From an uncultured archaeon (lineage in GTDB: Archaea > Micrarchaeota > Micrarchaeia > Anstonellales > Anstonellaceae): DNA of 64,000 nt. The translations under genes and the position numbers were made by a program. The stretch lies in NCBI GenBank assembly GCA_902384555.1, contig CABMCD010000002.1:1151-65150 (forward strand), given 5' to 3'. Positions 2,982 through 37,647 of the stretch are shown in pieces (position 1 is the stretch's first letter; the number at the start of each line of letters is the position of its first letter). Under the pieces are notes generated by a model. That model saw nothing but the letters and a program-made list of their open reading frames with translations, was not told the origin of the DNA and ran no database searches.

Positions 2982-3770
2982 TTACCATTCGATTTGAGTG
3001 CAAATCGTTTTCTTTCCCTGCAAAAGGGCTTCGAGCCGCTCGGGCTGGAGGGCATTGGCCACATAGGCCGACACCTTGACGGAGAGCAGCTCTTTCACCT
3101 TGCCGGCCATGCCGCCCGTGACATCGGGGGAATCGGACGGGCGCAGGTGGGATTCGTATTTGGCGAAATTCTGGCTGGTGATGAGCGGGATGACTTTTCC
3201 GTCCGCCAGCACGCCGTCCACGTCTGAGCCCAGCACGATTCGCTCGGCCTTTTTGCCCAAGCGGGCCACCAGCTGGTCGCCGGAGCAGACCGAGAAGCCC
3301 AAGGAGGCGTCGGGCACCATGTCGCCGCGCAGGATGGGCAGGTAGCCGGCCGCGAGGCAGGACAGAACCTTCTTTTCATCGAATTTGGAGATGCGCTTGT
3401 TGGTTGAAACCGCCAACAAGCCGGTGGGCAATACCATGGCCGGCACGCCCTCGTCCAGCAGGGCTTGGGCCACGATGGCGCTCAGTTTGGCGCAGGCGGC
3501 GCGCGTCTGGGCACAGGCCAGCTTCTGCGCCTCGGTTTTCACGCCGTTGTCGAGCCGGTGCTGGATGACAAGAGCATGCCCGAACGAGCCGGCGCCATGC
3601 ACCAGCACGATGTCGCGCACCCCGGATTTCCACAAGCCGCCCAGCATCTTGGCGAGGCGGCGGATGGCTTCCAAGTCCGCAGTCTGGGGCCGGTCTTTTT
3701 GGGTGATGACGCTGCCGCCGAGCTTGAGGATTTGCATAAGGGGAACTGGAAGAAATGGGTTAATAATCAC
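2982..3770 (-). CDS. ipk: Isopentenyl phosphate kinase (amino-acid kinase family)
   Basis: LKLGGSVIT, VHGAGSFGH (IPK His), GDMV, SGDQ, DVTGGMAGKV; start is GTG 3770 (GTGA overlap with upstream stop) or ATG 3737. Confidence 0.88.
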   Translation of the reverse strand: MIINPFLPVPLMQILKLGGSVITQKDRPQTADLEAIRRLAKMLGGLWKSGVRDIVLVHGAGSFGHALVIQHRLDNGVKTEAQKLACAQTRAACAKLSAIVAQALLDEGVPAMVLPTGLLAVSTNKRISKFDEKKVLSCLAAGYLPILRGDMVPDASLGFSVCSGDQLVARLGKKAERIVLGSDVDGVLADGKVIPLITSQNFAKYESHLRPSDSPDVTGGMAGKVKELLSVKVSAYVANALQPERLEALLQGKKTICTQIEW

Positions 3771-4744
3771 AATCCCAACTGACAGGCGTATTCGGCTATG
3801 AACGAAGCCATGCCCACCCGCTCCACCACCGGAATTTCAGCTTTCTCGGCCTGCCGATAGTGCAAATCAAAGGCATAGCCGCCCTTGACGATGAAGATGG
3901 TGTTGAAGCCGGCGGCGCGCATGCCGGCCACCTCGTCGGCGTTGTACATGTCGTCCAAGCGCCACACGCGCCGGGGCGGGACGCCTTCCAGCTCGGCGCT
4001 GATTTCCAGCTGCCCGGCCTTGCTCTTCTTGTCGCCCATGCGCTCCTTGCCGATGATGCACTCGCGGCGAATCATGCACTTGCGGGCCCCGAACATGACG
4101 CGGTCTTCTTCGCTGAGCGCGATGTCGTGCGCTTCCAGAAAGCCGGCGAGGGGGCTGCTGTAGGCCCGGCACAAATCCCAGGTGGATTGCTCGTCCTTGC
4201 TGGTGACCAGGTGAATGGTGTAGCCATGCTGGTTGAGAATCCGCAGCTCGGAGAGAGTGTCTATGAACGGCTCCTGCAGCAGGAACCACTCGGCCTCGCT
4301 CTGGGCTTGGCGGGCCTTGCGCTCATCGTAGAAATATTGGTCGAAAATCAAGCGCTCGGGTGCGGTTTGCGCCTTCTTTTCCTCGAATTTTTTGGTGAAG
4401 AAGGCCACAACCGCATCGTCTTTGGATTGGATGATGTGGCGGGCTTCGTTGGGCCAATCCGAAATCAATTGCAGGATGTTGAGATAATCGGCCGCCTTTT
4501 TCACCAGCGGGCGCAGGGCCACGAAGGCCTGCACCGTCTCGGACTGGTTGATGGCCTCGACTTCGCGGAACTCCTTCATGTCCAGCATGCGCCCGAAAAA
4601 GGACGGACCCTTGAGCAATTTTTCGGCCAGCATCCGCTGGTGCGCGTTGAGCGAGATGTAGGCGCATTCGCGCACGCCGTTGTTGAAAACGCCCTCGATG
4701 GAGGAGGCGATGACCAGATTGCCTTTGGGCCGGTAGATGGCCAT
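3767..4744 (-). CDS. HAD-like fold protein with degenerate motif I
   Basis: SSIEGVFNNG where DxDG is expected, IHLVTSK (motif II-like), RLDD (motif IV-like), KGGY. Confidence 0.5.
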   Translation of the reverse strand: MAIYRPKGNLVIASSIEGVFNNGVRECAYISLNAHQRMLAEKLLKGPSFFGRMLDMKEFREVEAINQSETVQAFVALRPLVKKAADYLNILQLISDWPNEARHIIQSKDDAVVAFFTKKFEEKKAQTAPERLIFDQYFYDERKARQAQSEAEWFLLQEPFIDTLSELRILNQHGYTIHLVTSKDEQSTWDLCRAYSSPLAGFLEAHDIALSEEDRVMFGARKCMIRRECIIGKERMGDKKSKAGQLEISAELEGVPPRRVWRLDDMYNADEVAGMRAAGFNTIFIVKGGYAFDLHYRQAEKAEIPVVERVGMASFIAEYACQLGL

Positions 4745-4819
4745 AAGTTGTCCCGCTAGGGTTTGATGCGTTTATTGGGGATTTGGGGGTTTTAAATTTC
4801 GCCTGCCCAAAAGGAGACC

Positions 4820-5353
4820 ATGCGCATTCTTCTTTGCATCACCGGCGCGTCCGGCCTTGTGTATGGGACACGGCTGGCCCAGCATTTGCGCGAAGCCAAA
4901 CAAGATGTTAGAATAGTCATTTCTTCTGGAGCCAAGGAAGTGGCCAAGGCCGAAAAAGCAGTCCTGCCCGCGCCCGATTTCTCTGAATCCGATTTCTCCT
5001 GCCCCTATGCTTCGGGCTCCAATGCGGCCGATGCCGTGGTGGTGTGCCCCTGCTCGCTCAAAACACTTGGAGAAATAGCCCATGGCGTCGGCTCCTCGCT
5101 CACCACCCGCGCGGCCGAGGTGGCGCTCAAAGAGAGGAAAAAGCTGGTTTTGGTGGTGCGCGAAACGCCTTATTCGCTTATTGCGATAGAGAACATGAAA
5201 CTCGTCACGCTGGCGGGCGGCATCATCCTGCCCGCCTCGCCCGGCTTCTACCACCAGCCGCAGACCATCGAGCAATTGGTGGATTTCATCTGCGGCAAAG
5301 TGATGGACCAGATAGGGGTGGAGCACAAGCTGTTCAAGAGATGGAAGGAATAG
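4820..5353 (+). CDS. ubiX: Flavin prenyltransferase UbiX
   Basis: CITGASG, ASGS, CPCSLKTL, RAAEVALKERKKLVLVVRETP, PASPGFY. Confidence 0.95.
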   Translation: MRILLCITGASGLVYGTRLAQHLREAKQDVRIVISSGAKEVAKAEKAVLPAPDFSESDFSCPYASGSNAADAVVVCPCSLKTLGEIAHGVGSSLTTRAAEVALKERKKLVLVVRETPYSLIAIENMKLVTLAGGIILPASPGFYHQPQTIEQLVDFICGKVMDQIGVEHKLFKRWKE

Positions 5354-5443
5354 GGCCGGGCGCACGGAACAAATACTGGCTGCCCGCAATGCCTGAAAAT
5401 CACGTCATACAAATCATTATTAACATCCGAATCCCTCGCGAAT

Positions 5444-6637
5444 GTGGGCCGAATTTTCCTCCCGGCGAATGTGATGGATGAAATCAGCGAAGGAAGCATC
5501 AGTTGGGGAGAGGTCATCGGCCCCGGCGTGCGCATGCGGCGCGGGGGCAAGCTCCTGCCGCCCCTGATTCCGAACCGGGAACTCAAGTTTTCCGATTTGC
5601 AGAAAAACCGCCCCATTCTGGAGGACGGCGACTCCATCCTTACGGGCCCCGGCTCGATGACTTCCCTGAGCGCCAGCGGCTATGAGGACCGGACGAAGAA
5701 GCTCCCGGCCTCCACCATGCTCTCCATTTTCCCCAACAGCGAGTTGAAACTGGGCGTCGGCGGATACGAATACACGGCCAAGAATGAACACCGCGTCTGC
5801 CGGACGATTACCCGCGTCGAGCTGGTGCGGGGCATTTTCGCGGTGGACACCACCGGCGAGCTGCTCACACCCCGGGCCGAATTCCGCCATCCGCTGGAGG
5901 GGCGCTATGCGTCCGACCGCAGCACCGGCTTCCTCTCCATCGAGGCACTGGCAGACGGTTCCACTTACTTCTACACCCACACCTTCTGCACATACGGCGG
6001 GCTTGACGTGGCGGCGCGCAAGGGGGGCCGGCATTTCATGGTGGTGCCGCCCCGCGACCCCAAGCGGGACGTGCCGGTTTTCCAGAAAGAGGGGGCCGTG
6101 ATGGCGGAGGGCATCTATGTCAAGCCCTTCACCCAGACCGACGAGCGGATGCAGAAAATCGCCAAATACGCCCTAACGGCCGGCCGTGACGTGTATGGCG
6201 TCAAGGACGCAGATGAGATTATCCACCAAGGCGAGCAGAACGCGCGCAACATGCCGCAAAACATCGATATGCAGGCCGCCAGCATCGGGGCGGCGATGGA
6301 GATGGCACTCAAGCTCAAGGGCATGAACAAGGCGGAGCTGATGGCCTTGGGCGTGTCGGCCGAACAGGCTGAACAGATGCAGAAAAGCGCGGCCGGCATG
6401 GACGAGGCCAAGATGAAGGAAATGTCGGCCAAAATGCAGGAAGGCTTTGGACAGATGCAGGAGAGCATGAAAAAAATGCAGGCCCAAGGATACGATTTTG
6501 GGGAAATGGCGCGCAAGGGAGCCATCGGCGCCAAGCGGATGTCGGACCGCAACCAGAAGCTCACCCAAGAGGCACTGGCCGAGCTGGCCGCCCTGCCGCC
6601 CTACCCGCCGCTCAAGGCCGAGTGGAAGAAAGCGTGA
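5444..6637 (+). CDS. Hypothetical protein with FecR-like beta domain and helical Met/Gln-rich C-terminus
   Basis: LEDGDSILTGPGS, IFPNSELKL, VELVRG, LTPRA resemble the FecR pattern; no signal peptide or TM helix seen. Confidence 0.55.
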   Translation: MGRIFLPANVMDEISEGSISWGEVIGPGVRMRRGGKLLPPLIPNRELKFSDLQKNRPILEDGDSILTGPGSMTSLSASGYEDRTKKLPASTMLSIFPNSELKLGVGGYEYTAKNEHRVCRTITRVELVRGIFAVDTTGELLTPRAEFRHPLEGRYASDRSTGFLSIEALADGSTYFYTHTFCTYGGLDVAARKGGRHFMVVPPRDPKRDVPVFQKEGAVMAEGIYVKPFTQTDERMQKIAKYALTAGRDVYGVKDADEIIHQGEQNARNMPQNIDMQAASIGAAMEMALKLKGMNKAELMALGVSAEQAEQMQKSAAGMDEAKMKEMSAKMQEGFGQMQESMKKMQAQGYDFGEMARKGAIGAKRMSDRNQKLTQEALAELAALPPYPPLKAEWKKA

Positions 6638-6648
6638 GGAATGAGCCG

Positions 6649-8220
6649 ATGGCCCGAAAAAACAAGAAAGAAAAAACCGCGCAGCCCCCGAAAGCCGCGG
6701 CGGCTTCCTTGTCGAAAAACCGGCAGGCGCCGGCCGGGCTTGACCTGACTTCCCTCCCGCCCGGCGTGGACAAAAAGAAGATGGCCGAACTCGTGGAGCT
6801 GGCCAAAAAGCTCAATCCAGTGCAGCAGAAGATGGCCGATATGCAGGCCAAGAACAAGGCCGAGCCGACCCCCGACTACCGCAAGCTCGCGCGCGAGGAG
6901 GACGCGGCCGAATATCAGAAGAAGCTGGCCGCCCCGCCGCGCATCATCCATTTCGTGAACGGCGGCTCCGTCGAGCCGGACGGCCGGGGCAAGGAAAAAC
7001 CGGGCGGCGGCGGGTTCGAGCCGGGCCCCAAGCTGCAGTTCGTGCAGGATTATGACGCGCGCGAATACCGCGTGTTCGGCGAAGCGCATATCGTGCGGGG
7101 CGGGGCGCGCATCCGCCTCTACGATTATTACTTCGACCGGGGCAAGGGGCCCGTGACGCCCGTCCGGGATGGGGACGTCATCGAAACCAAGGCCGGCTCG
7201 TATGTGTGGGGCCTCAAGAGCGTGCGCAACCCCATGCGGGGGGAAGGCGAGGACGAGGACTATTTCTCCATCGACATCTTCCCGAGCAGCCGCGTGCGCT
7301 TCTCGGTGGGCCACAAGAGCGGGCACCCGGACAGCAAGAACCAGGGCAGCCAATACGTCACCAACAACGTGGACGCCATTTCGTCGGCCGAACTTATGGA
7401 GGGGCTGTTCTTCATCGACATCCGCTCGAGAAAGCGGGTGGACGACCAGCTGGCCGGGGGGCCGGGATGCCCGAAATTCGAGGTGGGCCCGCCGCTAAGC
7501 CCGGCCGGGAACGAGGTGGGCAAGAGCCTGGAAAAAGTGCTGAAGGCCGGCCTCAACCTCCCGGCCGGCGTGCGGGCCAAATACGAGGACATGCTCACGC
7601 AGGCCAAGGAGGCGTCCTCCGGCCGGGGTTCGGGCAGGACCTTCCGCGGCTTTGTCGAGGTGAAGGGCGGCACGGTGTCTTTCATCGGATGCCTCAACTC
7701 GATTCGCGACCCGGCAGGCGGCAAAACGGCCACCGGCTACGCCTTCAGCCCCCAGATTTCGCGCGGGCTGGGGCGGGGCGAGCCGCTGCTGGCCAGCCTC
7801 TCCAATGCCATGAAAGTGGCCCTCGGCCCCGGCGGGCTGGTCGAAACCGACCTCTCCAAAAACCCGGACGGGCGGTGCACCGCCATTGCGCGCCGCCACG
7901 ACGTGGCGCTGCCCGGATACGTGGCGGCGGTGGAGGCCCGCGAGGAACTCAAGAAGTTCAAGCAGATAACGCCAGTCGAGCAGAAGGCGCAGCAGGAGCG
8001 CGGCATCCAAGAAGCGGAGGACATGCTGCGGGACGCCAAGGCCATGGACGAGCCGGAGCTGGTGAAGACGGCCCAAATCATGCTGGAGCAGGCCAAACGC
8101 GGCGGGTTCGCCGAAGTGAACGCGGCCGAGGTGCAAATGTCGGCCAAGAAGAAACAGATGCTGCAGGAGCAGGCGGACAAGGAGGAAGAATGGGCCCGCG
8201 AACTGCGCTCGCCGCTTTGA
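6649..8220 (+). CDS. Hypothetical protein, FecR-like paralog with coiled-coil C-terminus
   Basis: VRDGDVIETKAGS, IFPSSRVRF, AELMEGLFFI; ATG 6649 lies 12 nt after the upstream stop. Confidence 0.55.
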   Translation: MARKNKKEKTAQPPKAAAASLSKNRQAPAGLDLTSLPPGVDKKKMAELVELAKKLNPVQQKMADMQAKNKAEPTPDYRKLAREEDAAEYQKKLAAPPRIIHFVNGGSVEPDGRGKEKPGGGGFEPGPKLQFVQDYDAREYRVFGEAHIVRGGARIRLYDYYFDRGKGPVTPVRDGDVIETKAGSYVWGLKSVRNPMRGEGEDEDYFSIDIFPSSRVRFSVGHKSGHPDSKNQGSQYVTNNVDAISSAELMEGLFFIDIRSRKRVDDQLAGGPGCPKFEVGPPLSPAGNEVGKSLEKVLKAGLNLPAGVRAKYEDMLTQAKEASSGRGSGRTFRGFVEVKGGTVSFIGCLNSIRDPAGGKTATGYAFSPQISRGLGRGEPLLASLSNAMKVALGPGGLVETDLSKNPDGRCTAIARRHDVALPGYVAAVEAREELKKFKQITPVEQKAQQERGIQEAEDMLRDAKAMDEPELVKTAQIMLEQAKRGGFAEVNAAEVQMSAKKKQMLQEQADKEEEWARELRSPL

Positions 8221-8235
8221 TGAAGGGGGGAGAAT

Positions 8236-8523
8236 ATGGCAGACAAAAACAAACCGGATGCCGCGCCGTTTTGCATGACAGTGCAGGCCGTATTCATGCT
8301 GGCCGGGAAAGCCGTGGTGGCGGGTTCCATCATGTCCGGCACGCTGAAGGCCGGGCAGAAAGTCAAGGCCGAGGGGGGCCGCAAGGTTTTTGTGGTGGAA
8401 AAAATCGAAATCGCCAACAAAAGCCTGCCCTCCGCCCAAGCCGGACAGATGGTGGGCTTGACGCTGGTCGGGGCAGATGCGGCGGCCCTGCCGGCCGGGA
8501 TGACGATTAAAAACGCGGACTGA
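8236..8523 (+). CDS. Stand-alone EF-Tu domain II-like beta-barrel protein
   Basis: VQAVFMLAGKAVVAGSIMSGTLKAGQKV...IEIANKSLPSAQAGQMVGLTL mirrors EF-Tu/SelB domain II; no GTPase domain. Confidence 0.7.
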   Translation: MADKNKPDAAPFCMTVQAVFMLAGKAVVAGSIMSGTLKAGQKVKAEGGRKVFVVEKIEIANKSLPSAQAGQMVGLTLVGADAAALPAGMTIKNAD

Positions 8524-8541
8524 AAATCCGCTCAAAGAGGG

Positions 8542-8832
8542 ATGCAAATGGGAATTTTGGATGGAGTCGCGAACCGCGTGAAATACGAGATGGAATGGAA
8601 GGCCGGGAATGTTATTTCGGATAAGATAGCGCAGGGGGCCGGCAAGGTGCTCAAGCCGGGCGAAGCAGACAAGGGCAAATGCCCCAAGTGCAAGAAGCCC
8701 GTCACCGACAGCAGCCTCAAATTCTGCCCCAACTGCGGCCAGAAGCTGCAGATTACCTGCGCCAAATGCAATGCCAGCTTCCCATGGGGTACGAAATTCT
8801 GCGCCCAGTGCGGCGGGGCGCTCAAGGAATAG
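8542..8832 (+). CDS. Double zinc-ribbon protein
   Basis: Four CxxC motifs: CPKC, CPNC, CAKC, CAQC. Confidence 0.8.
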   Translation: MQMGILDGVANRVKYEMEWKAGNVISDKIAQGAGKVLKPGEADKGKCPKCKKPVTDSSLKFCPNCGQKLQITCAKCNASFPWGTKFCAQCGGALKE

Positions 8833-8999
8833 ACCGCGGCCCGGGGGCAGAAGAGGCGCGAAGAAAAAGAACGCGGCTTTGCGAGCCGGGCGGCAAAAAA
8901 CCGCCCGGAGAGGCGGCGGCCGACAGCTTGGCTTGGCGCCCGAGCCCCGCCTCGCAAACCCATATAATACTCAAGCCGCTTAGCTTGCGTGGTGGGAAC

Positions 9000-10310
9000 A
9001 TGAAGTCATTCCGTGAATTTGTTTCTGAATTGAAAGCCGACGGCACGCTGGTGGAGCTGAAGAAGCCGGTTTCCAAGCATTTGGAGCTGGCCGGGGCGCT
9101 GCATGCGCTGGACGGCAAGCCGGTGCTGACGGCCCATGTGAAGGAGAATCCCGGCGCCGTGGTGGCCGGGAACGTGTTTTCCACCAAAGACATCATTGCC
9201 CGCTATCTGGGATGCAAGAAGGGCGAGCTGGTCGCAAAGCTGGCGCACGCCATCGACCACCCGACGCAGCCCAAAGTGGTGGAGAAAAAACATGCGCCGG
9301 TGTTGGAAATAACCGACTCGACCGTGGACCTCGACACCCTGCCCATCCTTTTCCATGCGCCCAAGGACGGCGGCCCGTATTTCTCGTCCGCCGTTGTGGT
9401 TTCCAAAGACAAAGAGCTGGGCCAGAACTGCTCGTTCCACCGCATGATGCAGATTGGGAAGGACCGCATGGTGGCCCGCATTTTGCATCGGCATCTGGAT
9501 GAATTCATCGCAAGGGCGGGCGGCAAGAGCCTCGACGTGGCCATTGTGATTGGCGCGCCCATCAATTTCCTGCTGGCCTCGGCTGTTTCGACCGGCAAGA
9601 TTGGGGTGGATGAAACCACGATTGCGAATTCGCTGGCTCCGCTGGACGTGGTCGAGTTGCCAAACGGGATTCGGGTGCCGGCGCAGGCCGAATATGTGCT
9701 CGAGGCCACCATCACCGACGAGATGCACGACGAGGGGCCGTTCATTGATTTGACCGAGACCTATGATGTGGTGCGCTCGCAGCGGGTGGTGAAAATCAAC
9801 AAAATTCATCACCGCCAAAATCCTATTTACCATGCCCTTCTTCCGGGCGCGCTGGAGCACAAGCTCTTGATGGGCATGCCCAAAGAGCCCACCATCGTGC
9901 TGGAAGTGAACAAGGTGGCCAAATGCACCGGAGTGAATATCACGCCGGGCGGCACGAGCTGGCTGCACGCCGTGGTGCAAATCGACAAGAAGAACGAAGA
10001 CGATGGAAAGAAGGCCATCGAGGCCGCCTTTGCGGGCCACAAGTCGCTCAAGCATGTGGTGATTGTGGATACTGACATCGACATCTATTCGCCGGATTCG
10101 GTCGAGTGGGCCATTGCCACCCGCGTGCAGGCCGACAAGGACGTGGTGATTAAGAGCAAGCAAAAAGGCAGCTCACTCGACCCGTCCGCCGACCCGCACA
10201 CTTACGAGACCGCGAAGATGGGCTTGGATGCGACCAAGCCCATGGTGGCGCACGGCAAGAACTTTTCCAAGGCCGAATGGACCAAAGTGGATGTCGGCAA
10301 GCTGATGTGA
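9000..10310 (+). CDS. ubiD: UbiD-family prFMN-dependent decarboxylase, likely anhydromevalonate phosphate decarboxylase
   Basis: SFHRM, DEGPF, VDTDIDI, WAIATR, GSSLDPS, KMGLDATKP; ATG 9000; substrate inferred from linkage to ubiX, acnX and ipk. Confidence 0.9.
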   Translation: MKSFREFVSELKADGTLVELKKPVSKHLELAGALHALDGKPVLTAHVKENPGAVVAGNVFSTKDIIARYLGCKKGELVAKLAHAIDHPTQPKVVEKKHAPVLEITDSTVDLDTLPILFHAPKDGGPYFSSAVVVSKDKELGQNCSFHRMMQIGKDRMVARILHRHLDEFIARAGGKSLDVAIVIGAPINFLLASAVSTGKIGVDETTIANSLAPLDVVELPNGIRVPAQAEYVLEATITDEMHDEGPFIDLTETYDVVRSQRVVKINKIHHRQNPIYHALLPGALEHKLLMGMPKEPTIVLEVNKVAKCTGVNITPGGTSWLHAVVQIDKKNEDDGKKAIEAAFAGHKSLKHVVIVDTDIDIYSPDSVEWAIATRVQADKDVVIKSKQKGSSLDPSADPHTYETAKMGLDATKPMVAHGKNFSKAEWTKVDVGKLM

Positions 10311-10320
10311 GCCGGCCGCA

Positions 10321-11436
10321 TTACGCGGGCGTCCAGATGCCCGATGAGGCGGGGACCAGAATATTGCCGGTTGGCGAGGGCGGATACCCGTTTCCATTGG
10401 AGAGCGCCGCTTTTTTGTCCACCCCGTTCGGGGCGCAGATTTGGAACAGGGTGAGCAGGAACTGGTTTTCGATTTCCAAGGCTTGGTGATAGTATTTTTC
10501 CGAACCAAAGATGGTGTGGTGGTAGAGGTGGTGGTTGGCAAAGCTCTTGGCCAGCAGAATATAGAGGTCGGCCACGAACAGCACGCCCTTGTCGGGGTGC
10601 TTGGAGCTGTAGACGATGTTGGCCTCAATCACGTTCTCGAACGAATTGTGGCAGGGCGTGCGGCAGAGCATCACCTGATTCTGGCCGAAGTCCCCGACGC
10701 CTCTCCCGTTGACGTGCTGCTCTTTCGAATACGACTGAAGCTCGTCATGGAACTGCCTGAACGCGCCCTTGGGCAGGATGTGGTGCACCGTCACCTCGCC
10801 GGCTTTGAGCTCTTCGGGCGTGCGCTTGCAGAAGATGCACTCCGAATCCGCCCGGTTGACCGGGAGGAAGAGCTGTTGAAGCAGGACGTCGCGGTATTCC
10901 TCGAAGCTGATTTTCACCTCTCGCGAGCCGGTTTCGCCCTCCTGCAGGTGCCGCTTCTGGGTGAATTTGCGCGAGAGGAAGGGACGGATGGACTCCATCC
11001 GGTACAGAAGCTCGCCGAGCGTGCGCTTGAACCACGGGTAGGCCTCCTTTTCCTCGCTCGCCATGGCCCAGCGGTAAACGGCTGGCACAAAGAAGCTGTT
11101 GAGGCCGACGTAAATATTGGTTTGGCCGTAGTTTTTGTCCAGAAGGTTGCAGATGCGCGCAAAATCAGGGTCGGTGAATTCGTAGGTCTTGCCGGACAGG
11201 AGGCCGATGACTTCGCGCAGAGGAATGACGATGCCGTCCTGATTGGAGTGGGACTTGCTCCAGCCGTCGCGGATGCCGCCCAGAATGGCCCGCTGGCTGG
11301 CCGTCTCCACCTGCCGCTTGAGCGTCTCGCTTGGACTGAGATGCTTGAAAATGAAGAGAGGGGGCTTCTCGATGGAAGAAGTGGCGGAAATGACCCGGTG
11401 CTGATTGCCGGAACGGGGATTTTGTTTTTCGCCCAT
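10321..11436 (-). CDS. HNH endonuclease-like protein with unknown N-terminal region
   Basis: CIFC...TVHHILPKG...NQVMLCRTPCHN, a Zn-binding HNH pattern at ~10637-10840. Confidence 0.65.
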   Translation of the reverse strand: MGEKQNPRSGNQHRVISATSSIEKPPLFIFKHLSPSETLKRQVETASQRAILGGIRDGWSKSHSNQDGIVIPLREVIGLLSGKTYEFTDPDFARICNLLDKNYGQTNIYVGLNSFFVPAVYRWAMASEEKEAYPWFKRTLGELLYRMESIRPFLSRKFTQKRHLQEGETGSREVKISFEEYRDVLLQQLFLPVNRADSECIFCKRTPEELKAGEVTVHHILPKGAFRQFHDELQSYSKEQHVNGRGVGDFGQNQVMLCRTPCHNSFENVIEANIVYSSKHPDKGVLFVADLYILLAKSFANHHLYHHTIFGSEKYYHQALEIENQFLLTLFQICAPNGVDKKAALSNGNGYPPSPTGNILVPASSGIWTPA

Positions 11437-11548
11437 GCAAATAACATCGCATCGTAGTTTTTTTAACCGATTACCACAATCAAAATCTGGGCGCGAACCA
11501 CAAACATTAAATCAACTCGGCGCGTGAGCAGGGCAGGTGGGTTTTGCT

Positions 11549-12733
11549 ATGAAATTGACGGGCGAGCAGCAGAAAATGCTGGACGGCGAGCGCGGCGAGG
11601 CCGTGCAGCAGAGCATGGAAATTCTGGTGGCCTTGGGCAAGATTTACGGCGCGGCAGGAATGGTGCCGGTTTCGTCCGCCCAGATTGCCGGCGTGTCCTA
11701 CAAGACCATTGGAGAGGCCGGCTTGGAATATTTGTCCGACTTGGTCAAGAAAGGAGCCAAAGTGAAAATCCCCACCTTCCTCAACCCCGCCGGCATGGAT
11801 AGGGAGCAATGGGAGAAAATGAGGGTGCCGGCCGATTTCGCCAAAAAGCAAATTTTGGTGCTGGACGCCTTCGCCGCCATGGGCATCAACCCCACCTGCA
11901 CCTGCACGCCCTACTTCATCGGCATCCGGCCCAAAGTGGGCGAGCATGTGGCGTGGGCCGAGAGCTCGGCCGTATCGTTCTGCAATTCGGTGCTGGGCGC
12001 GCGCACCAACCGCGAAGGCGGGCCGTCGGCTTTGGCGGCCGCCATCTGCGGATTCACGCCCGATTATGGCTATCATCTGGATGCGAAAAGAGAGTGCCGG
12101 CTGCTGGTCGATGTTCGCGTCCCCCTCAAAACCAACGCCGATTTCGGGGCGCTGGGCGCCTTTGTCGGGCCGCTGGCCAAAAACAAGAATCCGGCGTTCG
12201 AGGGCTTGAGCAAAGAGACGGCCAATGAGGACAAGCTCAAGGCGCTGGGGGCGGCCATGGCCGCTTCGGGCTCGGTGGCGTTGTACAATGCAAAGGGAAT
12301 AACGCCGGAATGGAACGTGAGTGGAGAGGCGGAGCGAGTTTCCTTCGGTCCTGAAGAGCTGGCCGCTTCGCGCAAATCGCTGACTTCGGCCGACTCTCCC
12401 CCGCAGCTGATTGCGATTGGCTGCCCGCACGCCAGCTTGGCTGAAATCGAAGAAGTGGCGCACCGGGTGAAGGGCAAGAAGGTGGCGCACCAGCTGTGGG
12501 TTTGCACCGCCAAAGAGACCAAGCAAAAGGCCGACAAGGCCGGCTACACGGCCATCATTGAAGCGGCGGGCGGCCTCGTGGTGGCCGACACCTGCATGGT
12601 GGTCTGCCCGCTCAAGGAGATGGGCTTCAGCTGCACCTCCACCAATTCGGGCAAGGCAGGCAAATATTTGGCCTCCATGCAGCAGCAGAAAGTGGTGTAT
12701 GGAGACGTGGACGACATAATTGTTGTGAAGTGA
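11549..12733 (+). CDS. Aconitase X catalytic subunit / phosphomevalonate dehydratase large subunit
   Basis: SAQIAGVSY, TCTCTPY, WAESSAVSFCNSVLGARTNREGGPSAL, IGCPH, DTCMVVCP. Confidence 0.92.
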   Translation: MKLTGEQQKMLDGERGEAVQQSMEILVALGKIYGAAGMVPVSSAQIAGVSYKTIGEAGLEYLSDLVKKGAKVKIPTFLNPAGMDREQWEKMRVPADFAKKQILVLDAFAAMGINPTCTCTPYFIGIRPKVGEHVAWAESSAVSFCNSVLGARTNREGGPSALAAAICGFTPDYGYHLDAKRECRLLVDVRVPLKTNADFGALGAFVGPLAKNKNPAFEGLSKETANEDKLKALGAAMAASGSVALYNAKGITPEWNVSGEAERVSFGPEELAASRKSLTSADSPPQLIAIGCPHASLAEIEEVAHRVKGKKVAHQLWVCTAKETKQKADKAGYTAIIEAAGGLVVADTCMVVCPLKEMGFSCTSTNSGKAGKYLASMQQQKVVYGDVDDIIVVK

Positions 12734-12745
12734 GGAGGACGGCAG

Positions 12746-13159
12746 GTGAAAGGTATGGTTACTACTCTACATGGTCGTTCCATTTCGCGCGGGATTGGCG
12801 AGGGCGAAGTTCTCATTTGCAAGGATGCGATTTCGTTTTTGGGCGACATCGACCCCAAGAGCGGCACCTGCGTGGCGCCCAAGCACGCGATTGAGGGCAA
12901 AAACATTGCCGGCAAGGTGCTGGTGTTTCCCCAAGGCAAAGGTTCCACCGTGGGTTCCTATGTGCTGCTTCAGCTGGCGAAGAACGGGAAGGCCCCGGCC
13001 GCCATGGTGAATTTGGAGGCCGAACCCATCATCGTGGTGGGAGCCATCATTTCCAAAATCCCGATGGTGGACAAGTTGGAGAAAAACCCGCTGGAATTGC
13101 TAAAAGACGGGATGCGCGTGAAAGTGGATGGGGAAAAGGGGACGCTGGCGCTAGGATAG
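12746..13159 (+). CDS. Aconitase X swivel subunit / phosphomevalonate dehydratase small subunit (DUF126)
   Basis: ISFLGDIDPKSG, GKVLVFPQGKGSTVGSYVL; GAGGAGG RBS at 12732-12738. Confidence 0.92.
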   Translation: MKGMVTTLHGRSISRGIGEGEVLICKDAISFLGDIDPKSGTCVAPKHAIEGKNIAGKVLVFPQGKGSTVGSYVLLQLAKNGKAPAAMVNLEAEPIIVVGAIISKIPMVDKLEKNPLELLKDGMRVKVDGEKGTLALG

Positions 13160-14194
13160 AAGGCGCTTGAGGAGCTGCTTTGTTTTTTTCGGGGTTTCGA
13201 CCGCTTTCGAGCCTTCGCCCACGCCGGCCATGATGACGCGCTGAACGCCGGGAATCTTCTTGAGCATGCGCGCAATCTTGCCGGCCTCTTTTCGAGTGGT
13301 GATGATGTGGGCATTGGGGCCCGCGTCAAAGGTGTAGGCGGCCTTGGTTTGGCCGCTCTTTTCGTTGTATTCGTGCACCGCATACACGATAGCCCTTGAA
13401 ATGTCGTTCATGTACATGACGGGAGGCCACGTGTCGAGCATGGTGGCGTGCATGGCATTGGAGTCGCGCATGGTGAGGGTGGCCATGGTGGAAAAGTCGC
13501 GCGAGCGGATGGCGCGCGTCACCGCATCGGCCCGTTTCCCAACGATGCCCAATCGGCAGTGGCACAAGTCGGAGGTGCGCATGGTGCGCTCCATGCCGTC
13601 TTTGGAGCTGACTTTCTTTCGCTCGGGATTGGTGATGGCAATCACGTCCACCACCTCGGGCCATTTGGAGCGGGGCGCGATTTGCACGGCATGGCTGTCG
13701 TTGCCGTCTTTGTTCCTGCCCGCCTTCCAGCGCGCGAAGCCTCCGAAAACCGAGCGCGAGGCCGAGCCGGAACCGAGGCGGGCGAGAATGGAAATCTCCT
13801 TCTTGTCCTTGATTCCAAAGGCAGCCGCGACCGCCTGCGCCAGAGCCGCGAAGCCGGAGGCCGAGGAGGCAATGCCGGCGGCCGTGGGGAAGTTGTTGGA
13901 TGAGAGGAGGAGGACGGGTTTTTTGATGAGAGGATATTTCTTGCCCAGCCGGCGGCGGATGAGCAGGAGGGCTTCCGCGATGTGGGAGTCCGGCCCCTCT
14001 TTTCCATTGAGAATGAAGCGGTCTTTGCCCAATTTGGCGCCCAGCACCAGCGTAGTGGTGCTGGCCAGCGTCTTCTCGTCCAGCGTAATCGACACGCTGT
14101 CGTTGAGCGGCAGTTTGAGCAAATCGTCGCGCTTGCCCCAGTACTTGATGAGGGCGATGTTGGGCGGCGCGACAGAGGATACGATGGTTTCCAT
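13151..14194 (-). CDS. mvaD: GHMP-family (di)phosphomevalonate decarboxylase
   Basis: NIALIKYWGKRD, NNFPTAAGIASSASG, RLGSGSASRS, TFDAGPN; converges on and overlaps the 3' end of the small dehydratase subunit. Confidence 0.92.
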   Translation of the reverse strand: METIVSSVAPPNIALIKYWGKRDDLLKLPLNDSVSITLDEKTLASTTTLVLGAKLGKDRFILNGKEGPDSHIAEALLLIRRRLGKKYPLIKKPVLLLSSNNFPTAAGIASSASGFAALAQAVAAAFGIKDKKEISILARLGSGSASRSVFGGFARWKAGRNKDGNDSHAVQIAPRSKWPEVVDVIAITNPERKKVSSKDGMERTMRTSDLCHCRLGIVGKRADAVTRAIRSRDFSTMATLTMRDSNAMHATMLDTWPPVMYMNDISRAIVYAVHEYNEKSGQTKAAYTFDAGPNAHIITTRKEAGKIARMLKKIPGVQRVIMAGVGEGSKAVETPKKTKQLLKRLLS

Positions 14195-15398: not shown

Positions 15399-15434
15399 TT
15401 AATCTTGTTCGCCCATCCGGCCCTTGTGGGAGCC

Positions 15435-17057
15435 ATGGACGAATTCACGCCCGAGCAGAAGGCTATTTTGTCGAGGTTTTGCACCAATACCGACAAGCCG
15501 ACTTTTGGATTGGTTAATCTGCCGCAGGTGGTTTGCGGCGCGCTGTTTTCAAGATATTCGAGAAGCACCAAGAGCGCGAGGCGGGTGCTGCTGGAAGAGT
15601 TCATCCAGAATCCGGAGATGCAGTTCGACCAAATCGTGGGTTCCTCATCCGCTTCCGCCGCCAATCAGCTGGTCGCCACCCAGAAGGCCGAGCAGTTCTA
15701 TGACCGGGTGCTGGTGGGCTATGGCGACGATTCGGTCGCCGAATTGGGCGGGGCGCATCTGGCCTGCGAGGAAGTCTCGAATTTGGCCACCAAGTTCATA
15801 CAGGACGCGCGCATCGGGCTCTCGCCTTTGGAGAAAAGCACGCGCTATGTCTATTTCCACCAAAAAGACAAGGACGGCAGATACAGATATTACCGCGGCA
15901 AGGAATTGGCCGATTCTCTCGAATACATCCGCATCTGCGACATGCTCTTCGACACCTATGTGAAACTGCAGGAGCCGCTCATCGCCTTCATCAAAAAGAA
16001 ATACCCCAAGCCGGCCGACATCACCGACCGCGGCTACGAATCGACCGTGCGGGCCAAGGTGTGCGATTTGCTGCGCGGCCTGCTTCCGGCCTCGACGCTG
16101 ACCAACACCGGCCTGTACGGGAACGGCCGGGCGTTCGAATATCTGCTCACGCGGATGTATGCCTCGGACTTGCCGGAAGTGCAGGTGCTGGCGGGCGGGA
16201 TGCAGGAGGAGCTGGCCAAGGCCATTCCCTCGTTTGTGAAAAGAGCGAATGACAAGCACGGGCAGGCCACGCAGGCCTATTGGATGGAGTGCAGGAAAGA
16301 AAGTGCGGTGCAGGCGGGGAAATTCGCCCCTGCTCCCGCTTCTTCCGTTCCCGAAGTCGAATTGATTGAATACGACTCCCATGCAGAACAGAAGATTTGC
16401 GCGGCCATTTTGTTTTCATACGGCGGGCTGGATTATGCCGCCGCCAAAAAGAAGGCCGACGCGATGTCCGAGGCCGACCGCCTCGCCCTGCTCTCCGCCT
16501 ATGCCGGCCCGCGCGGCAACCGCCGCCACAAGCCCGGAAGAGCATTCGAACACGCGCATTACACCTTCGCCATTTGCGGCAATTTCGGCCAGTTCCGCGA
16601 CCTGCACCGCCACCGCATGCTGACGCAGGAAAGACAGATGCTGTCCTGCGACTGGGGCTACGACGTGCCCGAAGAGTTGAAGGAGGCCGGGCTGGCGGGC
16701 GAGTTTGAGGAGGCCATGAAGGAGGCCAAGGCCGCCTTCGACCATCTCCGCTCCGCCAAGGGCCCGGAGCTGGCCCAGTATGCCGTGCCGATGGCGTATC
16801 GCCTGCGCTGGTATTTCCACCTCACCCTGCGCGAGTGCTTCCACCTCATCGAATTGAGAAGCATGCCGCAGGGGCACGAGGACTACCGCAGAGTGGCGGT
16901 GAAGATGGCGGACGAGCTGGCGCGCGTGCATCCGAGGCTGGCCAGCTTCATGAAATTCGTCAATCGGGAGAACATCGGCCTCGAGCGCCTTGAAGCGGAA
17001 AAGAAGATTGACCAAAAACTGGCCAAGTTCGAGCACCCGCGCGCGCCGCCCGCTTGA
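15435..17057 (+). CDS. thyX: FAD-dependent thymidylate synthase, long two-domain type
   Basis: ALFSRYSRS, LEKSTRY in the N-terminal half; DLHRHRM in the C-terminal half. Confidence 0.85.
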   Translation: MDEFTPEQKAILSRFCTNTDKPTFGLVNLPQVVCGALFSRYSRSTKSARRVLLEEFIQNPEMQFDQIVGSSSASAANQLVATQKAEQFYDRVLVGYGDDSVAELGGAHLACEEVSNLATKFIQDARIGLSPLEKSTRYVYFHQKDKDGRYRYYRGKELADSLEYIRICDMLFDTYVKLQEPLIAFIKKKYPKPADITDRGYESTVRAKVCDLLRGLLPASTLTNTGLYGNGRAFEYLLTRMYASDLPEVQVLAGGMQEELAKAIPSFVKRANDKHGQATQAYWMECRKESAVQAGKFAPAPASSVPEVELIEYDSHAEQKICAAILFSYGGLDYAAAKKKADAMSEADRLALLSAYAGPRGNRRHKPGRAFEHAHYTFAICGNFGQFRDLHRHRMLTQERQMLSCDWGYDVPEELKEAGLAGEFEEAMKEAKAAFDHLRSAKGPELAQYAVPMAYRLRWYFHLTLRECFHLIELRSMPQGHEDYRRVAVKMADELARVHPRLASFMKFVNRENIGLERLEAEKKIDQKLAKFEHPRAPPA

Positions 17058-17171: not shown

Positions 17172-18038
17172 ATGGCAATGAAAACGGATGATTCCAACCC
17201 GCTCCAGATGCTGGCCATCGCCATCGTGCTGGCCAGCCTGGTGCTCTCGGCTTCGGTTTATTTCTCGGCCGATTTGCTGTCGCGCACGATTGAGCAGAAA
17301 CCCTTCACGGTCAGCCTCCCCCCCATGAACATCCAGCCGGTGCTTAACATCACCACGCTGGGCGGTGCGGCCCCGAGCTATCCGAGCGCGGCCCCCGTGC
17401 AGGCGCCCAGCGCGGCCCCGGGATGCGGCGTGCAGGCCCCGTCGGCCCCCTCCGGCTGCGGAGCGGTTGCGCCGGGCGGCTCCGGCACGGGCGGCACGGT
17501 GAAAGCGGCCGTCAACGTCAGCGGCCTGCCCCCCAAGGGGTCGGCCAAGGCCCGCGTCACGGTGGTGATTTTCTCCGACTACCTCTGCCCCTTCTGCAAG
17601 CGGGCCGAGTCCACCAATGCCCAGCTGCTCTCGCAGTATGACGGCAAAATCAACCTCGTGCACATGAACCTCGTCATCCATGGGCAGCCGGCCCATGTCA
17701 TGGCCGAGGCGGCCGAGTGCGCGGGCGCACAGGGCAAGTTCTGGGAGATGCATGACGCCATCTTCGCCGACCAGAAATCGGACGCGGCCAGCCTCAAGGC
17801 CAAGGCCGCGGCCATTGCCGGCATCGACACGGCCAAGTTCAACACCTGTCTCGACTCCGGCGCCATGGCGTCGAGAGTGGATGCCCAGAATGCGGCGGCC
17901 GGCGCGATTGGCGCAGGCGGAACCCCGACCTTCGTCATCGGCGTGCGCAACGGCGACATGGTGAACGGCCAGATGGTGGTGGGCGCGCAGGACATCGGCG
18001 TGTTCCAGCAGGCCGTGAACACCGCGCTCAACAGCTAG
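17172..18038 (+). CDS. Membrane-anchored DsbA-family thiol-disulfide oxidoreductase 1
   Basis: N-terminal TM, FSDYLCPFC, GTPTF; extra Cys pair in the Pro/Ala linker. Confidence 0.88.
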   Translation: MAMKTDDSNPLQMLAIAIVLASLVLSASVYFSADLLSRTIEQKPFTVSLPPMNIQPVLNITTLGGAAPSYPSAAPVQAPSAAPGCGVQAPSAPSGCGAVAPGGSGTGGTVKAAVNVSGLPPKGSAKARVTVVIFSDYLCPFCKRAESTNAQLLSQYDGKINLVHMNLVIHGQPAHVMAEAAECAGAQGKFWEMHDAIFADQKSDAASLKAKAAAIAGIDTAKFNTCLDSGAMASRVDAQNAAAGAIGAGGTPTFVIGVRNGDMVNGQMVVGAQDIGVFQQAVNTALNS

Positions 18039-18221
18039 AACGAAAAGGAGAAGCGGGCGGGCGGCGGTCGAAAGACCTCCGCGGCAGGAGCGCGCCCCCT
18101 CTTTTTTCCTTCATTTATTTACTTTTTCCCAAATCCGGCCCGGACGAAATTCAGAGCGTTTTTATATCCCGGGCCCGATATGGGTGGCGGTATTTTTCAT
18201 TCATAAATGGGAGGTCGTGAT

Positions 18222-18980
18222 ATGACAGGCAGTTCTGCATCCCCGGAAGAGAGCACGCTGTACATGCTGGCCAGCCTCGTGCTGCTGGGGTTCCTTGTGG
18301 GCTCGGCTATGGTCTGGTTCAGCTTCGACAACATGAAGAGCACGGCCGTGCTCGCGCTGCAGCGCGCGCCGGCCGGCGGAAACGGCGGCGCGGCCGGCGG
18401 AGCGGGAACGGGCGATTCGGGCGCGGGCGTGAGCGGAAACACCCTGACTTTCACACTGGGCGGGCAGAGCTTCAGCCGCGAAATCGAGGGCGACCCGAAC
18501 GCGACCGTCACCATCGCCGAATTCTCGGACTACGAGTGCCCGTATTGCATGCAGGCGCTGCCCACCATCCAGCAGCTGATGGAGGAATACCGGGGCAAGG
18601 TGAGGCTGGTGCACATGAACTTCGTGGTGCACCCCGACGCCCATCTGGCGGCCCTCGCGGGCGAATGCGCCGGCGAGCAGGGCAAGTACTGGGAAATGCA
18701 TGACGCCATCTTCTCGCAGAAGAAGTACGACAACGCGGGGTTGGCGCAGACGGCCCAGAGCATCGGGCTGGACGGGGCGAAATTCTCGGCCTGCCTCTCC
18801 AGCGGCAAGTACGAGCCGGCGCTGACGGCCCAGCAGGCGGCCGGCAGCAGCGCGGGCGTGGAGGGCACGCCCACGTTCATCATCGGCAAGATTCAGAACG
18901 GCCAGCTGGTCGGCACGCCCGTGGTGGGCGCCGTGCCGCTGAGCCAATTCGAGAGCGCGGTCAAGGCCGCCATGAATTAA
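18222..18980 (+). CDS. Membrane-anchored DsbA-family oxidoreductase 2
   Basis: TM, EFSDYECPYC, GTPTF; GGAGGT RBS favours ATG 18222. Confidence 0.88.
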   Translation: MTGSSASPEESTLYMLASLVLLGFLVGSAMVWFSFDNMKSTAVLALQRAPAGGNGGAAGGAGTGDSGAGVSGNTLTFTLGGQSFSREIEGDPNATVTIAEFSDYECPYCMQALPTIQQLMEEYRGKVRLVHMNFVVHPDAHLAALAGECAGEQGKYWEMHDAIFSQKKYDNAGLAQTAQSIGLDGAKFSACLSSGKYEPALTAQQAAGSSAGVEGTPTFIIGKIQNGQLVGTPVVGAVPLSQFESAVKAAMN

Positions 18981-18992
18981 GGAGGGAATGAC

Positions 18993-36827: not shown

Positions 36828-36837
36828 GCAAATCCCC

Positions 36838-37647
36838 CTAAAGCCCGCCGCCGTTGAGCGTGGCGAGCAATGCTTGCGGAATGATGAAGTTGGCCAGCGC
36901 CACCAGCTGCTGCGTGGCCACCAGCACGCCCAGAATGATGAGCAGGATGCCGGCGACGGCGTTGAAGTAGGGCAGGAAGCCCCTGAAGCGCTTGAGCACC
37001 CCCAGCGCCTCGCTGCCCAGCGCGCCCACCAGCAGGAAGGGCACCGCCAGGCCGGCCGCGTAGGCCAGCATGGGCCCCAGCGCGCCGCCCGCGTCGGTGG
37101 CGGCGAGGGTGAGGATGGAGCCCAGCACCGCGCCCACGCAGGGGCTCCAGCCCACCGCGAAAGTGGCGCCAAACACCATCGAAGTCAGGTATTGGTAGCG
37201 CGTGTGCATGGGATTGAGCTTGTGCTCGCTCTCCAGGAAGGGGATGCGGACGACGCCCAGCGTGAAGAGGCCGAAGAAGATGATGAACAGGCCGCCGACG
37301 CGCGAGAGCCAGAGGCGCACGACGGCGCCGGCCGGGGCCAGCACGCCGGAGAGCAGCACGCCCAGCACGGCGAAGGCGATGGAGAAGCCCAGCACGAAGA
37401 ATACGGAGTGCAGGAACATCTGCCACCGGGTGCGCGGCATGGGGGCGGAGGCTGGAGGCGAAACGGATTTCGCCTCCGAAGAGCGGGTCCGGCCTTGGGG
37501 CGCTTTTTGCGCAACCTTTGGAGCCGCCCCCATGGCGGAGACGCCGGAGAGGTAGCCCAAAAATCCGGGCAGAATCGGCAGCACGCAGGGTGAGAGGAAG
37601 GACAGCAGGCCGGCCGCGAAGGCGATGATGAGGGAGATGGGGGTCAT
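36838..37647 (-). CDS. ccdA: CcdA-family transmembrane electron transporter
   Basis: FLSPCVLPILP, FAVGWSPCVGAVLGSIL. Confidence 0.92.
   Translation of the reverse strand: MTPISLIIAFAAGLLSFLSPCVLPILPGFLGYLSGVSAMGAAPKVAQKAPQGRTRSSEAKSVSPPASAPMPRTRWQMFLHSVFFVLGFSIAFAVLGVLLSGVLAPAGAVVRLWLSRVGGLFIIFFGLFTLGVVRIPFLESEHKLNPMHTRYQYLTSMVFGATFAVGWSPCVGAVLGSILTLAATDAGGALGPMLAYAAGLAVPFLLVGALGSEALGVLKRFRGFLPYFNAVAGILLIILGVLVATQQLVALANFIIPQALLATLNGGGL

Follow-up and report, generated by a model that had tools for sequence, protein, structure and literature searches.

Four variants of the mevalonate pathway are usually seen as alternatives, and the order in which they evolved is debated. The classical route (Sulfolobales and some DPANN archaea) comprises mevalonate kinase (MVK) and phosphomevalonate kinase (PMK) as well as a diphosphomevalonate decarboxylase (DMD). 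The haloarchaeal/Chloroflexi route (Haloferax volcanii, Roseiflexus castenholzii, Anaerolinea thermophila) comprises MVK, a phosphomevalonate decarboxylase (PMD, or mevalonate phosphate decarboxylase, MPD) and isopentenyl phosphate kinase (IPK). The archaeal route (Aeropyrum pernix, Methanosarcina mazei) comprises MVK, phosphomevalonate dehydratase (PMDh, an AcnX type II enzyme), anhydromevalonate phosphate decarboxylase (AMPD, a UbiD enzyme) served by UbiX, and IPK. Here we describe a locus at positions 2982–14194 of a 64-kb stretch of contig CABMCD010000002.1 from an uncultured micrarchaeote (DPANN) in or near the family Anstonellaceae (the whole stretch is referred to below as the window), which encodes IPK, UbiX, UbiD, both AcnX subunits (AcnX-L and AcnX-S) and a GHMP-family decarboxylase, MvaD. 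Our reading, which we hold at about an even chance, is that the locus is a lower-mevalonate module in which two parallel branches from mevalonate 5-phosphate (MVA5P) to isopentenyl phosphate (IP) meet at IPK, and that the second branch is not the classical route.

Genes in the interval were typed by Pfam and NCBIfam family scans of the window's open reading frames (ORFs; Table 1). The original prediction had placed two alternative lower mevalonate routes in about 11 kb, with mvaD overlapping the 3′-end of the small-subunit gene: all six genes are there, and the overlap, read directly from the sequence, is 9 nt. As in the A. pernix and M. mazei pathway, the window carries a heterodimeric AcnX with the Fe-S and substrate residues of the Thermococcus kodakarensis enzyme (TkAcnX), a UbiD, a UbiX and an IPK, and in relatives of the window these genes make one operon-like string. 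The locus departs from that pathway in that a DMD-family decarboxylase is kept alongside throughout the window's clade (defined below), and from its relatives in that the string is broken by three unrelated ORFs.

The large (DUF521/AcnX) and small (swivel) subunit genes are separate and side by side, which is the heterodimeric arrangement. The best match of AcnX-L among Protein Data Bank (PDB) sequences is TkAcnX-L (7CNR_A, 351 bits; the bacterial hydroxyproline dehydratase, 7D2R/7CNP, reaches 196 bits), and that of AcnX-S is 7CNR_B (TK1248). In pairwise alignment five TkAcnX residues are conserved in AcnX-L: the Cys ligands of the Fe-S cluster (Cys110, Cys283 and Cys342), Glu129 and Lys361 (TkAcnX numbering; residue roles from Watanabe 2021). 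The pair thus groups, as the original prediction had supposed, with MVA5P dehydratase and not with the hydroxyproline clade. UbiD has the full-length architecture (UbiD_N, UbiD and UbiD_C domains all matched); translation probably begins at Met107 (position 8997), giving a protein of 437 aa, close to the 434–436 aa of its relatives. We know of no AMPD structure; among PDB sequences the highest score, 252 bits, goes to the UbiD-family entry 6H6V/6H6X. The IPK translation reads HGAGSFGH, in which the IPK-specific His of the G-x-G-S-F-G-H motif is present (for its role see Dellas 2013); this gene may start at the ATG at 3737 instead of the GTG at 3770.

The survey of relatives comprised 88 MvaD loci (denoted by L-numbers), 80 species representatives among them. 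They came from look-ups of identical proteins and from a single scan of the GTDB species representatives, of whose 510 genome hits the best 80 are included. Loci were typed by tblastn with the window proteins and with Micrarchaeota MVK, PMK and isopentenyl diphosphate isomerase (IDI) queries. The best MvaD homologues carry the label Candidatus Micrarchaeota; the supplement to a 2025 Micrarchaeota study places the syntenic relatives L010 (A14_bin-2075) and L006 (CG10_big_fil_rev_8_21_14_0_10_45_29) in o__Anstonellales, f__Anstonellaceae, and the MvaD of L010 is 71% identical to that of the window. MvaD adjoins UbiX-UbiD-AcnX(-IPK) in at least 13 related assemblies. With this synteny recurring at 13 related loci, each assembled independently, the linkage goes far beyond chance and is no peculiarity of this one genome.

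Besides the clusters with a PMK (see below), three arrangements recur. In the clade to which the window belongs (L001/L009, L004/L012, L006, L007, L010, L011 and L013) MvaD lies beside AcnX-S/L, UbiD and UbiX, and IPK is also present wherever the contig extends far enough; MvaD identity is 54–73%, and these MvaDs form a single clade in a neighbour-joining tree. The string UbiX-UbiD-AcnXL-AcnXS is contiguous in L001, L004 and L007, and in L006 the small-subunit gene stands apart. In Burarchaeum (L041, L062) and in L036 the same order is found on the other strand, with MvaD immediately 5′ of the string and co-directional with it, which makes this arrangement the more telling one; in L041 IPK and MVK follow. 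In the third group MvaD lies beside IPK, without PMK and mostly with MVK too. Anstonella has a co-directional string of IPK, a gene for a HAD-fold protein (see below) and MvaD, with MvaD far from AcnX.

The loci L051, L056, L060, L068 and L078, Micrarchaeaceae-like, are of the MvaD-beside-IPK kind, with MVK adjacent in L060, L068 and L078 and with Ser in place of Arg193 in MvaD; in gene content theirs is a haloarchaeal-type operon made from a DMD-clade enzyme.

Phosphomevalonate kinase is the enzyme that would make the substrate of a DMD, and the original prediction had proposed a genome search for it. With five full-length Micrarchaeota PMKs as queries, none was found in the window or in the 12 AcnX-linked loci, whereas 42 other Micrarchaeota loci were positive, mostly directly 3′ of MvaD, with the neighbours confirmed as PMK by NCBIfam. 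In Table S3 of Zhu et al. 2024, Anstonella, Bilamarchaeum and Burarchaeum (91–94% complete) are each scored with one MVK, IPK, DMD, AcnX1, AcnX2 and AMPD and with no PMK, and PMK is detected by the same table in other Micrarchaeota. The Burarchaeum genome tabulated there is our L041. In L060, L068 and L078, where MvaD and IPK are adjacent, no PMK was seen in the available flanks (L078 gave just a weak PMK-like match with the full-length queries), and one genome tabulated by Zhu et al. has MVK, two IPKs and DMD with neither PMK nor AcnX; only PMD activity would complete the pathway in these cases. Genes for MVK, PMK, HMG-CoA enzymes and IDI are all missing from the 64-kb window; in L041 MVK neighbours the locus, and Zhu et al. 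2024 give it as present in relatives. With no partner kinase in sight, the window MvaD is probably a parallel shortcut from the same intermediate and not the end of a full classical pathway.

A different state is seen in L008 (and identically in L023), where the PMK that follows MvaD is only 234 aa long: its C-terminal half is gone and there is no space for a longer PMK before the next gene. The cluster also holds two IPKs, IDI1, MVK and two polyprenyl synthases. From the sequence it looks like PMK decay is under way in this lineage.

The substrate-site residues of MvaD were numbered according to Staphylococcus epidermidis (the ruler sequence is 100% identical to PDB 3QT5), on which scale the window enzyme has Y18, K21, K27, S107, S139, S141, R144, S192, K193 and D283. 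The catalytic Ser107, Arg144, Lys188 and Asp283 are all present and are invariant across the 88 loci. The phosphate-binding positions are Tyr18, Lys21, position 27, Ser139, Ser141 and Ser192 (Dellas 2013, Table 4). According to the same work Lys21 binds the diphosphate in mevalonate diphosphate decarboxylases (MDDs) and is Leu, Met or Tyr in MPDs, and position 27 is Arg in MPDs and Ile or Asn in DMDs. Ser191 and Arg192 of the Enterococcus faecalis MDD bind the pyrophosphate of mevalonate diphosphate (Chen 2020); with an offset of one residue these are Ser192 and Arg193 of S. epidermidis. The window MvaD keeps Y18, K21, S139, S141 and S192 of the diphosphate-binding set, but Arg193 is replaced by Lys, and at position 27 it has Lys, a basic residue as in MPDs.

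These substitutions are not confined to the window. Every member of its clade has Arg193 replaced, R193K being accompanied by I27K; an Anstonellaceae-like clade with Asn27 has Ala, Ser, Asp or Asn at 193; the IPK-linked, PMK-less clade has Ser at 193; the Burarchaeum MvaD carries K21N, and that of Anstonella K21Q together with R193A. Conversely, an Aenigmarchaeota DMD encoded in an operon with a bona fide PMK retains both Lys21 and Arg193. When PMK-linked and PMK-less MvaDs were compared without supervision, positions 193, 194, 197, 198 and 27 ranked near the top. A basic residue of helix α1 (E. faecalis Lys71) is also lacking in the window clade, although the alignment there is ambiguous by one residue.

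Among the 61 species representatives with flanks long enough to judge, Lys21 and Arg193 are both kept in 40 of the 41 with a PMK nearby and altered in the remaining one; with no PMK nearby they are kept in one and altered in 19 (Fisher p = 1e-13 over 61 species, uncorrected for phylogeny). We propose the rule that Lys21 and Arg193 are retained only beside PMK: a checkable predictor of specificity, applicable to thousands of database proteins labelled ‘diphosphomevalonate decarboxylase’.

Together these features lead us to the following scheme. MVK, encoded outside the window, would produce MVA5P. In one branch AcnX-L/S, as a [4Fe-4S] PMDh, would turn MVA5P into trans-anhydromevalonate phosphate, and UbiD, as AMPD, would decarboxylate this with prenylated flavin mononucleotide (prFMN) made by UbiX, no ATP being spent. 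In the other, MvaD, its kinase partner PMK lost, would most likely take MVA5P directly and carry out an ATP-dependent phosphorylation and decarboxylation in the haloarchaeal/Chloroflexi style, at the price of one ATP and with no special cofactor. The single IPK would convert the IP from both branches into isopentenyl diphosphate (IPP). A haloarchaeal-type conversion of MVA5P to IP fits better than the classical one because there is no linked PMK and the pyrophosphate ligands are altered. As in the haloarchaeal/Chloroflexi route, a GHMP decarboxylase occurs with IPK and without PMK; unlike haloarchaeal PMD, the window MvaD sorts with DMDs (TIGR01240) and has kept Lys21. It is a close relative of the classical DMDs, and other Micrarchaeota do have MVK-DMD-PMK operons, but the window's lineage differs from these in having no linked or reported PMK, in the replacement of Arg193 and in the presence of IPK. 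The original claim that two routes coexist therefore stands in so far as a complete PMDh/AMPD/UbiX/IPK set lies beside a catalytically intact GHMP decarboxylase; that the second route is the classical one is unlikely.

Per IPP the AcnX/UbiD branch costs two ATP and the MvaD branch three, and the prenyl group of prFMN comes from the pathway's own product. One possibility is that MvaD would serve as an O2-tolerant, cofactor-free back-up to an O2-sensitive route that needs its own product for prFMN. Published work has found PMDh to be sensitive to oxygen and H2O2 and the reconstituted archaeal pathway to be active only near-anaerobically, failing in air, which makes an oxygen-dependent division of labor a reasonable hypothesis. 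Given the O2 sensitivity of PMDh, the oxygen switch and the prFMN bootstrap, both raised in the original prediction, are plausible as hypotheses. A fuller version of the scheme is possible but doubtful: that in Anstonellaceae and their neighbours a eukaryote-type DMD turned back into a phosphomevalonate decarboxylase after loss of PMK, with Lys21 and Arg193 shed or remodelled independently in several clades, and now runs, driven by ATP, tolerant of oxygen and free of special cofactors, parallel to the Fe-S/prFMN route as switch or prFMN primer, the HAD-fold protein being a hitherto overlooked part of the module.

Several points weigh against a PMD-type second branch. The window MvaD belongs to the DMD equivalog TIGR01240 and reaches a mere 121 bits on NF040704, the model for haloarchaeal PMD, whose cut-off is 475. 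The correlation between residues and PMK ignores shared ancestry, its signal coming from some four to five independent clades. The window enzyme is the mildest of the PMK-less forms, and its Lys193 could still bind the β-phosphate. A PMK may be encoded elsewhere in the genome, or a non-homologous kinase may take its place, the search having covered 64 kb of this genome; moreover, a 2025 study calls the mevalonate pathways of the Anstonellales ‘complete’, and includes PMVK in an ancestral reconstruction. UbiD is presumed to be the AMPD because of its family, its place in the operon and the published scoring of AMPD in these orders, and both the substrate of MvaD and the reason for keeping two branches are what we infer from sequence.

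In a rival reading the classical and archaeal routes are both complete: MvaD would be a genuine diphosphomevalonate decarboxylase, and a PMK from another part of the genome would supply mevalonate 5-diphosphate (MVA-5-PP) to a full eukaryote-type MVK-PMK-DMD branch. We consider this unlikely, though it has substance: besides the TIGR01240 score and the ‘complete’ pathways of the 2025 study, the top PDB matches of the window MvaD are eukaryotic DMDs and the Sulfolobus DMD, Tyr18, Lys21, Ser139, Ser141 and Ser192 are DMD-like, R193K preserves charge, PMK-DMD operons exist in other Micrarchaeota, and in Hodarchaeales PMK, DMD, AcnX and AMPD occur on a single contig (Zhu et al. 2024). What tells against it is that PMK, beside MvaD in 42 other loci, is found in neither the window nor the AcnX-linked loci and is scored zero in three nearly complete relatives with the same gene set, and that Arg193 is replaced throughout the window clade, which also lacks the basic helix-α1 residue of PMK-linked forms.

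It is quite improbable that MvaD is instead dual-specific, or a minor leftover of a lost classical pathway, with flux passing through AcnX/UbiD and the linkage being merely inherited gene order. The Chloroflexota DMD does have extra PMD activity (Zhu et al. 2024), the truncated PMK of L008 points to PMK decay in one lineage, and in the window three inserted ORFs are splitting the cluster. Yet the MvaD ORF is full length, its four catalytic residues are invariant in all loci, including the 80 species representatives, and linkage to AcnX/UbiD or to IPK recurs in several separate clades in which gene orders differ and one is co-directional: such recurrence with varied orders argues for selection.

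The original prediction also raised the idea that convergent transcripts of acnX and mvaD interfere through the overlap, so that the branches are expressed either/or. The 9-nt overlap is real, there is no G+C-rich hairpin terminator between the genes, and oligo-T tracts able to terminate archaeal transcription sit within the opposite gene. The idea is nonetheless weak because relatives do not share this 3′ arrangement: the genes are separated by 5 nt in L001 and by 33 nt in L010, L007 has an overlap of 14 nt, L004 has a whole ORF between AcnX-S and MvaD, the order is co-directional in L036, L041 and L062, and the Anstonella MvaD is nowhere near AcnX. The overlap as a feature is not under selection, and we give antisense control very little credence. 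Scans of the window for bacterial promoters and terminators gave counts near shuffle expectation, the models being bacterial and the host archaeal.

That AcnX and UbiD are non-isoprenoid enzymes (of hydroxyproline or aromatic-acid metabolism), leaving MvaD and IPK as the sole lower mevalonate route, is next to negligible: the only NCBIfam match of AcnX-L is a hydroxyproline dehydratase model, below its cut-off, and the nearest UbiD structure was deposited as ‘3-polyprenyl-4-hydroxybenzoate decarboxylase and related decarboxylases’ and not as AMPD, but both AcnX subunits match the T. kodakarensis MVA5P dehydratase far better and the large one retains the three Cys ligands, Glu129 and Lys361, UbiX-UbiD-AcnXL-AcnXS adjoins IPK (and in L041 MVK too), and Zhu et al. 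2024 (Table S3) score AMPD, AcnX1 and AcnX2 present in these orders.

The module as we propose it has a possible further member. The gene directly upstream of IPK forms an operon with it, the two overlapping by 4 nt in the called coordinates, and points away from UbiX. Its product has no Pfam, NCBIfam or PDB sequence match; an AlphaFold2 model (mean predicted local distance difference test 93.5) finds HAD hydrolases as best Foldseek matches (E = 1e-5), and the protein is confidently predicted to have a fold of the haloacid dehalogenase (HAD) superfamily with a large helical cap. In the family an invariant Ser-Ser-x-Glu-Gly takes the place of the motif that usually holds the Asp nucleophile (motif I), and three Cys are likewise invariant. 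The family is rare, with 13 clusters at 90% identity and ∼27 representative clusters at E < 1e-30 among 1.84 billion proteins. In Micrarchaeota and Aenigmarchaeota its gene always has IPK, MvaD, UbiX or IDI as a neighbour. In the window clade the gene lies between UbiX (on the opposite strand) and IPK; in Anstonella it lies between IPK and MvaD. A classical cluster in Aenigmarchaeota reads IDI2 (opposite strand), HAD-fold gene, a 117-aa ORF, DMD, HAD hydrolase, Nudix/IDI1 fusion and PMK, then MVK on the opposite strand. As a candidate for a non-homologous PMK the HAD-fold protein was rejected, since the Aenigmarchaeota cluster has a bona fide PMK as well; nor is it a candidate kinase, its predicted fold being HAD-like and not kinase-like.

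Mixed sets of mevalonate genes have been noted before. Hoshino and Gaucher 2018 reported MVK/PMVK/DPMD in a few Micrarchaeota and genes of the mevalonate 3-kinase (M3K) route in others. Zhu et al. 2024 (Microorganisms 12:707) describe the Hodarchaeales contig mentioned above and tabulate PMD with AcnX and AMPD for several Bathyarchaeia and Thermoplasmata. The legend of the pathway figure in the 2025 Micrarchaeota paper defines both Mevalonate-5-PP and trans-anhydromevalonate phosphate. The earlier statement that organisms normally use one route is thus too strong: in this lineage the two occur together as a rule, and mixed sets are known from Hodarchaeales and from several Bathyarchaeia and Thermoplasmata. 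This tells in part against the original prediction, which had named common and already described co-occurrence in the lineage as a refutation. Being already in published tables, co-occurrence is itself not new. The window resembles the mixed sets of Zhu et al. 2024 in having two lower-mevalonate solutions per genome, as do their three PMK-less Micrarchaeota; unlike the co-occurrence, which stands in their supplementary table, the missing PMK that leaves DMD an orphan, its conserved synteny with UbiX-UbiD-AcnX and IPK, and the coupled loss of pyrophosphate ligands are not discussed there. In the literature searched we found no description of the orphan status of this DMD, of its synteny or operon with UbiX-UbiD-AcnX and IPK, or of the coupled change in pyrophosphate ligands.

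One proposed order of pathway evolution runs from the archaeal route through the haloarchaeal PMD route to the eukaryotic PMK/DMD route. Having stably retained the archaeal route alongside a PMK-less DMD-family enzyme, this lineage offers a natural intermediate, or a reversal, with which that order can be tested. For engineering, where the ATP-saving archaeal route fails in air, a natural design that couples it to a proposed oxygen-tolerant bypass could be useful.

Table 1. Coordinates of the mevalonate locus, of other features of the window and of features in related loci.
Feature	Sequence	Position	Strand	Match or remark
IPK	window	2982-3770	-	NF040647 IPPK_Arch 178 bits (cut-off 120); PF00696
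HAD-fold conserved protein, 325 aa	window	3767-4744	-	directly upstream of IPK
UbiX-type flavin prenyltransferase, prFMN supplier for UbiD	window	4820-5353	+	PF02441, E = 3.5e-43
ORF, 397 aa, C-terminus rich in K/E/M	window	5444-6637	+	between UbiX and UbiD
ORF, 532 aa, partner of the 397-aa ORF	window	6622-8220	+	between UbiX and UbiD
Skewed segment holding these two ORFs	window	5444-8220		ORFs rich in K, E, Q, M; strong A-over-T skew, 0.19-0.27
UbiD-family decarboxylase, presumed AMPD	window	ORF 8679-10310, likely start 8997	+	TIGR00148 322 bits (cut-off 245)
ORF, 371 aa	window	10321-11436	-	between UbiD and AcnX-L; SplA match below threshold only
AcnX large subunit, phosphomevalonate dehydratase (AcnX type II)	window	11537-12733	+	PF04412 505 bits
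AcnX small subunit, swivel domain	window	12746-13159	+	PF01989; NF003046 181 bits (cut-off 163)
MvaD, DMD-family GHMP decarboxylase	window	13151-14194	-	TIGR01240 281 bits (cut-off 171)
Convergent 3′ overlap AcnX-S / MvaD	window	13151-13159	both	9 nt CTAGGATAG, contains both stop codons
ThyX, 550 aa	window	15405-17057	+	best Thy1-domain match = residues 319-510
Three tandem DsbA/thioredoxin-like genes, DsbD-like membrane protein, thioredoxin-like protein	window	17172-20378 and 35619-37647	+ and -
tRNA, 111 nt	window	60160-60270	-	Rfam 55 bits; missed by ARAGORN
ORF with C-terminal Por_Secre_tail domain	window	62219-63325	+	type IX secretion sorting domain
HAD-fold family member	L089	10001-11050
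HAD-fold family member	L090	8001-8981
HAD-fold family member	L091	825-1814
PMK after MvaD, 234 aa	L008 (identical in L023)	11070-11774
Mevalonate cluster	L007	854-4645		Cas1, Cas2 and a Cas12f/TnpB-like gene ∼5 kb away

Beyond the six named genes the interval holds four extra ORFs: the HAD-fold gene and the three that split the UbiX-UbiD-AcnX string, which is contiguous in relatives. The 397-aa and 532-aa ORFs, which lie in a segment of strong A-over-T skew, gave no family match in Pfam, NCBIfam or PDB sequences. Their homologues form a pair in L004, ∼5 kb outside the cluster, where the gene corresponding to the 532-aa ORF is 58% identical; judged against the related loci, the insertion of the 397-aa ORF between UbiX and UbiD is found in this genome only. 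The 371-aa ORF had no homologue in related loci.

The window as a whole is ∼61% G+C, and real genes are recognizable by a G+C content of ∼0.8 at third codon positions. The remaining genes include those for ribosomal protein L15e, RtcB, fibrillarin, ThyX, topoisomerase I and PurH. The tRNA that ARAGORN missed is probably an intron-containing archaeal tRNA. The disulfide-handling set is unusually large for a small archaeal genome and is possibly a hint of an oxic lifestyle. The Por_Secre_tail domain at the C-terminus of one ORF is normally a feature of Bacteroidota.

Two observations concern related loci. In L007 the mevalonate cluster lies close to Cas genes (Table 1). In L042 and L079, chromosomes of the planctomycete Candidatus Uabimicrobium, a DMD is found that shares 45–47% identity with the MvaD of the window and belongs to the 80 best among the 510 genome hits. 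The others in that set are all archaeal metagenome-assembled genomes, nearly all labelled Micrarchaeota, which suggests gene transfer between the groups.

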